A stretch of DNA of 64,000 bases from an uncultured Verrucomicrobiae bacterium (GTDB lineage Bacteria > Verrucomicrobiota > Verrucomicrobiia > Limisphaerales > J093): assembly GCA_937946835.1 (NCBI GenBank), contig CALFAV010000020.1:907-64906 (forward strand), read 5' to 3'. The notes under the pieces were generated by a model, which was not told the DNA's origin, searched no databases, and saw only the letters and a list, made by a program, of their open reading frames with translations. A program made the position numbers and the translations under genes. Below, one piece after another: positions 14,723 to 48,178 of the stretch. The number at the start of each line of letters is the position of its first letter. Positions within the stretch are counted from its first letter, which is position 1.

Positions 14723-14950
14723 GGCGACGCCAAATTTTGTGATGCCCAAAGGCTGGACAGTGTCGTATGCGATCCTGGGGCAGATCAAACAGCTTTTGGA
14801 CTGGGGATTCGACCTGGGGGCAGCGAGGATGTGCCAGATTGGACAAATTGATTCACCCTGCCCCCTGCATCAATGCGCGAAAAGGACCCATGCGAGGTCT
14901 GTCACGGCATGGTCAAGTGGGGCACACGCCAAAACACTGACACTAAACAG

Positions 14951-14967
14951 TCGGCACGAAAACTGCT
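14951..14967 (+). promoter_or_regulatory. sigma54 (-24/-12) promoter
   Basis: TCGGCACG-AAAA-CTGCT, with GG at 14953-54 and GC at 14965-66 exactly 10 nt apart (consensus YTGGCACGNNNNTTGCW). Confidence 0.7.
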
Positions 14968-14977
14968 CCTATTAGAG

Positions 14978-15149
14978 GCAAACCAGCGTCGGGTTTCTGC
15001 GACGGAAATCGGCTGAATCCCGCCGCTCCTGCGATCACCGCAGGCGCAAAAGGTCCTCAGTGGCCTGCTTTCGGCGGCTGAAAACGCTGCCGACCTACCT
15101 TGTAACGTCGCCTGGCGGTCCCGGAATCCGGGACCGCCAGTTCTCTTTT
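14978..15149 (+). ncRNA. candidate sigma54-dependent small RNA 1 (or structured leader of nnr)
   Basis: Lies between the sigma54 promoter and a 13-bp terminator, has several hairpins, and contains no credible ORF. Confidence 0.5.
15112..15149 (+). terminator. intrinsic terminator
   Basis: CTGGCGGTCCCGG-AAT-CCGGGACCGCCAG followed by TTCTCTTTT. Confidence 0.8.
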
Positions 15150-15201
15150 GTGGGTTCGCCAATTCGCTTGCCTGCCAAGTCGCTTTTCCCAAACTCGGTT
15201 T

Positions 15202-16884: not shown

Positions 16885-16960
<76 letters not shown>

Positions 16961-18243: not shown

Positions 18244-18319
18244 AGGGCGGTAGCTCAATTGGCAGAGTAGCGGTCTCCAAAACCGTCGGTTGGGGGTTCG
18301 AGTCCCTCCCGCCCTGCCA
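18244..18319 (+). tRNA. tRNA-Trp(CCA)
   Basis: AGGGCGG...CCGCCCT-GCCA, anticodon loop CTCCAAA. Confidence 0.97.
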
Positions 18320-18331
18320 GACCGTGTCACG

Positions 18332-18420
18332 GGAGGGGTGGCAGAGTGGTCGAATGCGGCGGTCTTGAAAACCGTTGTGGGTTGCACCCACCGGGGGTTC
18401 GAATCCCTCCCCCTCCGCCA
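18332..18420 (+). tRNA. tRNA-Ser(TGA)
   Basis: GGAGGGG...CCCCTCC-GCCA, anticodon loop CTTGAAA, long variable arm GTGGG-TTGCA-CCCAC. Confidence 0.96.
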
Positions 18421-30017: not shown

Positions 30018-30369
30018 TGGTGGAGGCGAGGGGAGTCGAACCCCTGTCCCTGAAACGCGCCCCAGTCGCGACTACATGCTTAGCCGGAGGTTCGTCTCGG
30101 CTGCGGGAACGCCCCCCGGCGTGCTTCCCCGCAACCCAGTCGGCATGAAATTTGTCGGGCGGTCCCGCGCCGACCCCGGCACCGCCTCTGCCTGCTGTGG
30201 CGTTCAGCCGGCGTAGCAGGCGTCCACCGGTGAACGTCGCGGCAGTTTAGGCCGCGAGAGCCAACTCTTCGTTAGCAGTTTTGGTTGATGCGATGTTTTA
30301 CGAGGCCCACGCATCGTCCTCGGCATGCCGCTTCTGGCACACATCCCAGGTCGAAACCGGTGCGCCCCC
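30018..30369 (-). ncRNA. ssrA: tmRNA; tag peptide (A)ANEELALAA
   Basis: 5' GGGGGCG...TTTCGAC, 3' GGGGTTCGACTCCCCTCGCCTCCACCA, tag ORF 30276-30247 GCT AAC GAA GAG TTG GCT CTC GCG GCC TAA. Confidence 0.96.
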
Positions 30370-45827: not shown

Positions 45828-47288
45828 ATGGACAAGCTGCTGCTCATAGATGACGAGCGGGACATGCACTACTCGTTCCGGCGCATTTTTGACTCGCCGG
45901 ACCTGGAGCTGATCCCCGCCGCCAGTGGGGAGGAGGGCTTGCGCCTCATTGCCGAGCGCCGGCCCGACCTGGTGCTGCTGGACATTCGCCTGGGGGGCAT
46001 CAACGGTTTGGAAACCCTCCGCCGCATCCGACACCTGGACGCCCGCCTGCCGGTCATCCTCATGACGGCGTACGGCACCACCCAGACGGCCATCGAGGCC
46101 ATGAAACTGGGGGCCTACGATTACCTGCTCAAGCCCTTCGACGTGCCGCGGCTCAAGCACATCGTGGGCGAGGCGCTCCGGGCCGCGCGCGCCATGCGCC
46201 AGATAGTGTCCTACCAGCCGCTGCTCGAGCAGGAGGATTACGAACTGGGCATCATCGGACGCAGCCCGGCCATGCAGGAGGTTTTCAAGTTGATCGGCCA
46301 ACTGGCGGCTTCCGACGCCACGGCGCTGATCACGGGGGAAAGCGGCACGGGCAAGGAACTGGTGGCCCGCGCCATTTATCACCACAGCCGCCGCAGCCGC
46401 CAACCGTTCCTGGCCGTCAACTGCGCGGCCATCCCGGAGCAACTGCTCGAGAGCGAACTTTTCGGTCATGAAAAGGGCGCCTTCACCGGCGCCACTCACC
46501 AGCGCATCGGCCGCTTCGAGCAATGCCACGGCGGCACCATTTTCTTGGACGAGATCGGCGACATGAGCCCGGCCACGCAGACCAAGATTCTGCGGGTCCT
46601 GCAGGAGGGCACCTTCGAGCGTGTGGGCGGCAACGCCACAGTGCGGGTGGACGTGCGGGTGATCGCCGCCACCAACCAGGACCTCGAGCGTGCCGTGGCC
46701 GAGAAACGCTTCCGCGAGGACCTGTTCTACCGCCTTAACGTCGTGCGCGTGCGCCTGCCGCCGCTGCGGGAGCGGCCGGGCGACATCCCCCTGCTGGCGG
46801 ACTACTTCCTGCGTCGCGGCGCACAAAAGTTCGGTCGCCCCCCCGGGCTGCTCTCCGCCGAGGCGTTGGCCCTGCTCGAACGCCACTCCTGGCCCGGCAA
46901 CGTGCGCGAACTTGAGAACGCCCTTCAGCACGCCCTGGTTGTCGCCAAGGGCGAAACCATCTTGCCGGCCGACCTGCCGGCCAGCGTGCGGGCGCCTCTG
47001 CCAGCGGCTGCCCCGGAGCAGACCGAGGTTTCGCCGCCCGCGATTTCCCGCGCTTCCGCCGGAGACGACTCGGAAGTGACCGACCTGGCGACCCGCCTTT
47101 TCGCCTGGGCCAGGAGCCACCCGCAACGCAAGGTGATCGAAGCCGTCGAGCGCGCTTTGGTTGTCCAGGCATTGAAAGAAACCCGCGGCAACCAGGTCCG
47201 AGCCGCGCAATTGCTGGGCATGACCCGCGCCACGCTCCGCAAGCGGATCGAACGTTTCGGCATCCGCCGGGAATTCGACGTGCGCTGA
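45828..47288 (+). CDS. NtrC-family sigma54-dependent response regulator (REC-AAA+-Fis HTH)
   Basis: Receiver domain DD/D/K, GESGTGKE, GAFTGA, FLDEIG, WPGNVREL, C-terminal HTH. Confidence 0.95.
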   Translation: MDKLLLIDDERDMHYSFRRIFDSPDLELIPAASGEEGLRLIAERRPDLVLLDIRLGGINGLETLRRIRHLDARLPVILMTAYGTTQTAIEAMKLGAYDYLLKPFDVPRLKHIVGEALRAARAMRQIVSYQPLLEQEDYELGIIGRSPAMQEVFKLIGQLAASDATALITGESGTGKELVARAIYHHSRRSRQPFLAVNCAAIPEQLLESELFGHEKGAFTGATHQRIGRFEQCHGGTIFLDEIGDMSPATQTKILRVLQEGTFERVGGNATVRVDVRVIAATNQDLERAVAEKRFREDLFYRLNVVRVRLPPLRERPGDIPLLADYFLRRGAQKFGRPPGLLSAEALALLERHSWPGNVRELENALQHALVVAKGETILPADLPASVRAPLPAAAPEQTEVSPPAISRASAGDDSEVTDLATRLFAWARSHPQRKVIEAVERALVVQALKETRGNQVRAAQLLGMTRATLRKRIERFGIRREFDVR

Positions 47289-47732
47289 ACGCCTGCGGCG
47301 GAGTGCCCGGCGCGGCGCCACCCGGCCGGCTTCGTCGGGTCTTCCCGCGGCCGCCCCTTGGAGCATCCGACGCGCTCTGACCGCCTCCCCGGCGGCCGTG
47401 TCACGCTGCCTTTAGCCGGTATTTTCCGAGAGGGTTTCCAACCCCGGTTCACGGGGTTATTTGACAACAGGCGGAACAGCCCGTCCAAATCTTGGCCGGG
47501 TCTGCGATTAGCAAATCCCAAATCCATCGGCGGCAACCCCGATTCGTTCGCGTCCCAGGTTGCTGTCGAAAACGGCGTGGGCGGGCGGCGATTGCGAATG
47601 AAATTCACGGCACAACCCTTTGGTCCACAAAAGGATGTTCCAACGAACGGTACGGCTCCAAATGGCGGGAGAGCTCGACTGTCCCGTCGCGTCAGCCCCA
47701 CCTGCGTCGCGGCTTTGAAATCCCACCTCGGG

Positions 47733-47749
47733 CAGGCATACCGGTTGCT
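47733..47749 (+). promoter_or_regulatory. sigma54 (-24/-12) promoter
   Basis: CAGGCATA-CCGG-TTGCT, with GG at 47735-36 and GC at 47747-48 exactly 10 nt apart. Confidence 0.65.
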
Positions 47750-47759
47750 TGAGGAGCGG

Positions 47760-47923
47760 GCGTTACTTTGCGCCCAAGGGCTGCTGCCGGCACGGGGGCC
47801 GGTGGCTGGGCGCGTGGAGTAACCAAGTCGGCTGAGTTTGCCGGCGCCATGCCGGCGGGGAACAGGGTTGCCGTGCTTGAAGGGTCGGTCTGCCGCCCGC
47901 TCCAACGGGCGGCAGACTTTTTT
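47760..47923 (+). ncRNA. candidate sigma54-dependent small RNA 2
   Basis: Two long hairpins followed by a terminator, beginning at the predicted +1 of the sigma54 promoter. Confidence 0.55.
47888..47923 (+). terminator. intrinsic terminator
   Basis: GTCTGCCGCCCG-CTCCAA-CGGGCGGCAGAC-TTTTTT. Confidence 0.88.
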
Positions 47924-48178
47924 AGGGCTTCGGCCCCGCGTGCTCGCTGGCGAGTCCCCGAAAGCTTTCCCCTTTCAGGGCAGAACCCATTTTTGCCGCC
48001 GGCATCTCATCGCGGGGCCGGTGCCGAGCGGCAAGCACCGGTCCGGGGCATGACCTCATTCGTCACTTGACGCCTCGGTCCTGTTCCCGGCCGGCTTTCC
48101 CCGCAGCGCCCTTGCCGCGCGCCGGAGCGAGCGATTCTCGATTTGAAGCCCCCCGCGCCTCCGGGTCTAATCCCGCCG

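Follow-up and report, generated by a model that had tools for sequence, protein, structure and literature searches.

The window, by which we mean the whole 64,000-nt stretch of DNA analysed here, comes from an uncultured Verrucomicrobiae bacterium. Between the gene of an NtrC-like response regulator and that of enolase (from 48179) it has a gap of 890 bp, which holds a sigma-54-type promoter, a series of hairpins and a terminator (Table 1). The best-scoring model for the regulator is NtrC, at 514 bits, which lies under that model's cut-off of 558.6. The promoter reads GGCAT-ACCGG-TTGCT, with GG-N10-GC spacing and with the T that leads the consensus TGGCAC-N5-TTGCW replaced by A/G; from its position we infer a transcription start (+1) at 47760. 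The same genome (G000) encodes rpoN (Sigma54_DBD, 202 bits at G000:C4:70338–70814) and at least 7 paralogous sigma-54 activators.

Table 1. Features of the predicted RNA gene and its upstream region, in window coordinates
Feature	Position	Strand	Remarks
NtrC-like response regulator, REC + sigma-54 AAA+ (GAFTGA) + Fis-type HTH (HTH_8)	45828–47288	+	
Imperfect palindrome GTCCAAATCTTGGCC	47483–47497	.	~250 bp upstream of promoter
Tandem repeats GTTCCAA-N4-CGG (47637–47650) and GCTCCAA-N4-CGG (47655–47668)	47637–47668	+	
Sigma-54-type promoter GGCATACCGGTTGCT	47735–47749	+	−24 GG, 47735–47736; −12 GC, 47747–47748
Predicted ncRNA, ~164 nt	47760–47923	+	Covariance model matches of 144–174 bits in 7 loci
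Long 5′ hairpin P1-P2-P3	47762–47823	+	Internal loop AAGGG on the 5′ side (47776–47780), invariant; apical loop CACGGGG
P4 stem GCCGGC/GCCG-U-GC	47851–47876	+	Presents conserved loop GGGGAACAGGGUU (47857–47869)
Single-stranded linker AAGGGUC (consensus RGGGU)	47880–47886	+	GGGT invariant in alignment
3′ hairpin of 13 bp + T6, predicted intrinsic terminator here	47887–47923	+	Hairpin, 47887–47918; T6, 47918–47923

Taken alone, the promoter match is at chance level. It is the sole exact GGCAY-N5-TTGCW in the window, with 0.79 expected and at least one match in 62 of 100 shuffles, and when 2 mismatches to the full sigma-54 consensus are allowed the window holds 13 matches, compared with 13.6 expected. 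Conservation, rather than the promoter match, is what raises the RNA finding above chance, and it can be followed through several kinds of comparison.

First, a BLASTN search with positions 47600–47930 as the query against 61 genomes (the window's own and 60 relatives) gave matches with E ≤ 1e-11 in 4 of 9 congeneric genomes (G001, G002, G006 and G008), with further matches in G012 and G052 as fragments of 31–40 nt. The alignments begin at query positions 132–136, that is, at the −24 element (window 47731–47735), in three of the four congeners and at position 170 in G006, and in all four they end at query positions 320–324, in the 3′ hairpin. Column identity is 0.72–0.74 over the promoter, 0.5–0.89 through the RNA and 0.45 past the 3′ hairpin, against a background of 0.35–0.45 in the flanks.

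Second, a covariance model made from five sequences (the window's genome and these four congeners) finds the RNA in 5 of 33 genomes of the family, all of them within the window's genus, where 5 of 10 genomes carry it and the 5 without it are the larger ones, of 6–9 Mb. Two full-length copies, near-identical to each other and close to those of G008 and G002, lie on metagenome contigs (L156 and L175). In the five genomes and on both contigs, the promoter has an unchanging GGCA and TGCTT on either side of a variable spacer, and GG-N10-GC is kept in 7 of 7 loci. The carriers, five genomes of one genus and two near-identical contigs, offer few independent changes, and part of the invariance may reflect short divergence time alone.

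At the level of the order, a covariance model search of 151 genomes returned one match beyond the own genome (G180, 33 bits), which we rejected as a family member: it is a false positive made of the end of a coding region and a terminator. A loose pattern, GCGCCCAAGGG-N15–40-TGGGCGC, occurs over genome contigs at 120 loci or more in many phyla, 80 of them among the matches listed. The model was run on 28 of those 80, picked by taxon label, and on 34 metagenome loci from a stricter pattern, and it recognized 2 full-length members and 4 weak partial matches (19–24 bits) among these 62 loci, a count that would miss any members among the other 52 listed loci. The comparison with Rfam proposed alongside the original prediction assigns the region to no described family: none of the 4,227 models of Rfam 15, which include CrcZ, NrsZ, Qrr, GlmY, 6S and riboswitches, matches it at gathering score, and the best sub-threshold match (16.8 bits, with a gathering score of 40) is confined to the terminator. 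Regulatory RNAs of Verrucomicrobiota were found neither in the literature searched nor in Rfam at this locus.

Third, the region has a defined fold. A 168-nt stretch folds at −92.9 kcal/mol (z = −3.40), a value equalled by 1 of 200 shuffles. The long hairpin that had been proposed to start right at +1 folds as drawn, with stems GTTACTTT/GGAGTAAC and TGCGCCCA/TGGGCGCG and an apical stem, and this arrangement of P1, P2, an internal loop AAGGG(Y)U and P3 recurs in all seven sequences when each is folded singly. P1 pairs in each lineage despite sequence change (GUUACUUU/GGAGUAAC, GCGUCAC/GUGGCGC, GUCAUC/GAUGAC and GUCAGCU/AGCUGAC), and compensatory changes are seen in both P1 and P3. The second hairpin of the original prediction is the minimum free energy structure for this sequence, but the relatives favour a short hairpin of variable sequence, between the 5′ hairpin and P4, followed by P4 itself. 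The P4 stem is different in every lineage and paired in each (GAGCCGG/CCGGCUC, GCCGGC/GCCG-U-GC, CCGGGUCGG/CCGACUCGG and AAGCCCGU/ACAGGCUU), with changes on both sides in 6 of 9 pairs, and the loop that it presents, GGGGAA(A)CAGGGUU, is nearly invariant. In the 3′ hairpin, 10 of 13 pairs are G–C and 11 of 13 are the same in every copy, with a loop that varies freely; the hairpin and its T6 are present as predicted, although the stem has 13 pairs rather than the 12 first counted.

When the five-helix structure is scored on the model-based seven-sequence alignment, pairing is found in 89.6% of 327 cells, compared with 33–47% when the partners are slid, and pairs changed on both sides number 13, compared with 4–5 when slid; none of 500 shuffles reaches the observed values. 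The model behind this alignment already contained three of the five helices, and the pair counts of those three therefore lean toward the structure. P1 of G001 and of G006 is shifted in it, and MAFFT does not put P1 in register, so support for P1 comes from the single-sequence folds together with a partly misaligned pair count.

Fourth, the region does not behave as a coding sequence. Anchored on an invariant box, the frame of the 47598–47822 open reading frame, whose translation would have contradicted the RNA, is open for 177 codons here, 12 in G006 and 34 in the metagenome copies. Across the copies no reading frame is conserved or has consistent ends, and the lengths of the indels do not keep to multiples of three. 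We considered whether the conserved block might be a small protein-coding gene or an element acting at the DNA level through protein-binding palindromes, given that the two most invariant stems double as DNA palindromes and that the region, in a genome rich in G+C, is overlapped by open reading frames of 100–154 codons. Such an explanation would have to accommodate P1, P3 and P4 stems that vary in sequence yet stay paired, the absence of any kept frame, indels out of step with codons, and conservation that runs from promoter to terminator, and we regard it as very improbable. The evidence supports the prediction of a separate transcription unit that is structured and non-coding, starts from a conserved promoter of the sigma-54 type and ends in a terminator. 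We read it as a genuine sigma-54-dependent ncRNA gene that would represent a new family, narrow in range and found solely within a subclade of a single uncultured genus of Verrucomicrobiota.

The original prediction placed this RNA just downstream of its activator, in a layout like that of cbrB-crcZ. In the window's genome the layout holds: the RNA gene starts 447 bp past the stop codon of the regulator, on the same strand, and the regulator combines REC, a sigma-54 AAA+ domain with GAFTGA and HTH_8, with NtrC as its best model. The search for the RNA downstream of orthologous regulators, suggested as a check, gave a different picture. All 10 genomes of the genus have an orthologue of the regulator, at 73–86% identity, and 5 of the 10 have the RNA; each of the four RNA-bearing congeners has it on a different contig from the orthologue, with enolase not near. 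The orthologue follows proS in G001, G002 and G006, as here, and that of G008 is truncated by the contig start. The RNA adjoins this regulator in 1 of 7 loci, namely in this genome alone. Because homology with the congeners at the regulator locus ends within ~30 bp after the stop codon, the RNA is located at a synteny break. In the flanks of this break (47289–47480 and 47924–48178), we also noted that enolase is near neither the regulator nor the RNA in the congeners examined.

The link between regulator and RNA could nevertheless be functional, with the adjacent NtrC-like protein binding upstream and activating the RNA promoter in a cassette of the cbrB-crcZ or ntrC-nrsZ type. By a rough estimate, made without formal computation, a chance landing of a relocated RNA module beside one of ~7 activators among ~3,000 genes is unlikely, of the order of 0.5%. 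The NtrC regulon of E. coli includes polyamine uptake genes, and polyamine uptake genes are what the RNA neighbours elsewhere. Against such a circuit stand the single adjacency in seven loci, the different contigs in all four congeners, and the presence of the regulator in twice as many genus genomes as the RNA, which implies that the regulator has other work. In addition, the activator found at 5.7 kb from the RNA in G008 and G002 is another one, with 41% identity, and the enhancer repeats proposed for the circuit are not conserved. We therefore consider this circuit doubtful, if well worth keeping in mind. With neither the link nor the repeats conserved, the cbrB-crcZ-like layout is limited to this genome; we take the position of the RNA beside the regulator to have arisen by accident, or recently, in a single genome, and count the regulator among the candidates, which are the sigma-54 activators, at least 7 in number, that this genome encodes. 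Adjacency alone should not assign activators, given that the cassette-like position is peculiar to one genome.

The activator 5.7 kb from the RNA in G008 and G002 sits beyond the pot operon described below, and its 87% orthologue in the window's genome is on another contig. As a separate observation, a conserved protein of 431 aa is encoded directly after a sigma-54 response-regulator paralogue (L128:1601–2893, + strand; G000:C37:29621–30880), and the protein at L128:1601–2893 has no Pfam or NCBIfam match. This pair of paralogue and 431-aa protein is kept here (87–91% identity) though the adjacent pot operon is gone.

The DNA upstream of the promoter bears on the question of the activator. The tandem repeats 90–125 nt before +1 are present as first described, but they are not conserved as enhancer sites: identity across the relatives is 0.35–0.55 in this region, against the background of 0.35–0.45, and the pattern is absent from the other five sequences. 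The only strongly conserved upstream block is the one around the palindrome, with identity 0.82 over 47479–47498 against the same background. The motif is unique in the 3.46-Mb genome and in relatives extends to TTGGACA-N5-TGTCCAA-N3-TTGGCC. The palindrome is a candidate for an enhancer (UAS) or for a relic of a divergent mpl promoter. That it moved along with the RNA to a new place fits an enhancer; that it resembles, on the opposite strand, a −35/−10 pair facing mpl points to a possible promoter relic. Half-sites of the TGGACA type precede 5 of 40 sigma-54-like promoters, which is no enrichment over the background of 14.5%. Half-sites of the TGGACA/TGTCCA type do occur in the conserved upstream blocks of both sigma-54 RNA candidates in the window, with different spacing, and an enhancer common to the two is a weak lead.

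The seven RNA loci fall into four contexts. The RNA lies between mpl and a potA-potB-potD-like operon in G008, G002 and both metagenome contigs; between ahcY-metK and the pot operon in G006; between mpl and a convergent HEAT-repeat gene in G001; and between the regulator and enolase in this genome alone. Proteins with N-terminal-methylation and HEAT-repeat signatures are encoded nearby, which agrees with the assignment to Verrucomicrobiota. The potA-like protein scores 360.3 bits with the subfamily model TIGR01187 (cut-off 355.6) and has PotB- and PotD-like partners. In the window's assembly, which is 89% complete, we found no orthologue of mpl, potB or potD and no close potA (best 45–50% identity).

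The 3′ end of the RNA differs between these contexts. After the 3′ hairpin, a run of six T follows here and of nine in G001, whereas the five pot-linked loci have 2–4 T. All five instead have a conserved extension of ~80 nt (CUGCUAGCC and two more AGGG motifs) and then a second hairpin with T5–T8, and the pot-linked RNA seems to continue for ~80 nt to a second terminator.

Since 5 of 7 loci have the RNA ahead of potABCD and on the same strand, a link in cis has to be weighed: the sigma-54 promoter would drive the potABCD-like operon, the RNA would be its 5′ leader or attenuator, possibly sensing a ligand, and the copies here and in G001 would be orphaned leftovers. It is exactly those five loci that are without a U-run at the 3′ hairpin, and their ~80-nt segment with a second hairpin just before potA is arranged as in a leader that carries an expression platform. 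However, the two orphan copies are equally conserved, show compensatory changes and end in U-runs (T6 and T9), and this assembly keeps the RNA, although the three orthologues and a close potA were not found in it. No known riboswitch family matches. All 5 potA sequences that were aligned carry, 7–10 nt ahead of the start codon, a conserved CTTGTCG-N17-TTACGAC-like element, and one of them is that of G001, where the RNA does not precede potA; we infer that the element is the pot operon's own promoter, and the pot mRNA made from it would possibly be leaderless. Predicted terminators also separate the RNA from pot. A leader or riboswitch would be expected always before the same gene with no promoter between, and what we found is pot downstream in 5 of 7 loci and a promoter-like element in between. 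A cis-acting leader is accordingly improbable in our judgement. Separately, we noted CTTGTCG-N17-T(T/A)ACG(A/T)C before the GTG or ATG of a potA-like gene, without a Shine–Dalgarno sequence, at L128:6830–6930 (− strand) and in L129, L131, L156 and L192.

Four contexts among seven loci, and retention here with no mpl, potB or potD orthologue and no close potA found, lead us to regard the RNA as independent of its neighbours. One can imagine a history that would join the observations: the RNA might have begun as a sigma-54-driven, nitrogen- or polyamine-responsive potABCD leader and then become a portable riboregulator module (the −250 palindrome, promoter, RNA and terminator) that outlived the loss of the transporter, relocated and was captured here behind an NtrC-like regulator that drives it, with the short form acting in trans and the long form as a cis version. 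We hold this scenario to be improbable as well; if true, capture behind the regulator would be a snapshot of how activator–sRNA cassettes such as ntrC-nrsZ arise.

With promoter and fold conserved, no coding frame and no fixed neighbour, the reading that we favour, and consider somewhat probable, is a free-standing gene for a structured ncRNA of ~165 nt that would be transcribed by sigma-54 polymerase from GGCAT-N5-TTGCT on activator firing, presumably from the predicted +1, and that would act in trans. Transcription by this polymerase would mean that the RNA is made solely when an enhancer-binding activator fires. The product would have four parts: the 5′ hairpin with its AAGGG loop, the short variable hairpin, the P4 loop stem with the RGGGU linker, and the G+C-rich 3′ hairpin. 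The unpaired G-rich motifs (AAGGG, GGGGAACAGGGUU and RGGGU) are invariant while the 3′ hairpin loop varies freely, and they are likely the working surface of the RNA. Most likely, these exposed motifs would serve as the seed and base-pair with C-rich stretches of mRNA, without Hfq, much as NrsZ works through a loop motif that it repeats.

A search of this genome for exact complementarity gave hundreds of 12-mer matches and nothing convincing near a start codon. Two candidates were set aside: the best loop match, of 15 nt at C6:2732, lies midway in a frame of 1,179 codons, and a pairing that the loop could make with Q-loop (ALFP) codons in the mRNAs for ABC ATPases, found for potA in G008 and G002, is represented in this genome by one motif with a 6-nt match.

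The recurrence of a similar short, conserved motif in the internal loop, apical loops and linkers raises a different mode of action, in which the RNA would titrate a protein that binds RNA through its four to seven exposed motifs of the AGGG type, like RsmY/RsmZ with CsrA or CrcZ with Hfq/Crc. The loop ACAGGGA of G006 resembles the CsrA SELEX consensus. Yet neither CsrA (PF02599) nor Hfq (PF17209) was found in any of the five RNA-carrying genomes, which are 89–96% complete, under searches in which control genomes scored. The classical sponge models thus do not apply, and titration of either protein was rejected. Moreover, the core of the motif is GGG rather than GGA, of which there is a single conserved instance, and we estimate that G-runs are not above the level of this genome, with its 68.5% G+C. 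There is only a slight probability, in our view, that the RNA is a protein sponge.

The design of an activator, a sigma-54 promoter and a small RNA is well known; the RNA family itself would be new. CrcZ, which titrates Hfq/Crc through A-rich motifs, is a sigma-54-dependent sRNA encoded after the activator gene cbrB, and NrsZ is induced by nitrogen limitation. The same design of activator, sigma-54 promoter and small RNA is found in Pxr of Myxococcus (after nla19), Qrr of Vibrio (LuxO) and GlmY of enterobacteria (GlrR), and Desulfovibrio has sigma-54 ncRNAs beside response-regulator genes. Like CrcZ, the predicted sigma-54-dependent RNA described here is located in this genome after an NtrC-like regulator gene; unlike CrcZ, its motifs are G-rich, its carriers have Hfq in 0 of 5 genomes, it has no Rfam match and its synteny with the regulator is not conserved. 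It shares with Pxr, Qrr and GlmY the combination of sigma-54 promoter and small RNA, but it belongs to another phylum and no homology to them was detected.

NrsZ offers a close parallel in layout. The NrsZ study describes an sRNA of Pseudomonas of ~226 nt with an RpoN promoter, intergenic after an NtrC-type regulator gene, in which stem-loops are separated by spacer hairpins, a repeated purine-rich loop motif, ACAGGCAG, is the means of action, and the number of modules varies between species (PMC4253122, Wenner et al. 2013). It also reports a conserved RpoN promoter predicted for nrsZ in the other Pseudomonas species compared and an RpoN consensus carried by CrcZ (PMC4253122). The RNA here is like NrsZ in its sigma-54-type promoter after an NtrC-like regulator and in its loop motifs (CAGGG/AAGGG, compared with ACAGGCAG), and its short and long forms recall the variation in NrsZ modules. 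It differs from NrsZ in that its loops are not copies of one module and that the link to the regulator is found in 1 of 7 loci. It also has no sequence or model similarity to NrsZ, which is absent from the Rfam matches with E values as high as 10. A conserved sigma-54-type RNA with invariant single-stranded motifs would provide an entry point to RNA regulation in Verrucomicrobiota genomes in which Hfq and CsrA were not detected.

Finally, the window contains other RNA elements. A second candidate sigma-54-dependent RNA, of ~170 nt, lies at 14836–15150 (+ strand), with the promoter GGCACGAAAACTGCT at 14953–14967 and a hairpin and T-rich run near 15110–15148 as its end. All 10 genomes of the genus keep it together with its promoter, TYGGYAC-N5-YTGCT; it has no Rfam match, and five small-genome relatives share a conserved TGTGCCA-N3-TGGACAA block ~105 bp upstream of it. 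A tmRNA (161 bits) and three tRNA genes, at 30018–30369 (− strand), 16885–16957 and 18244–18417 (+ strand), are ordinary.
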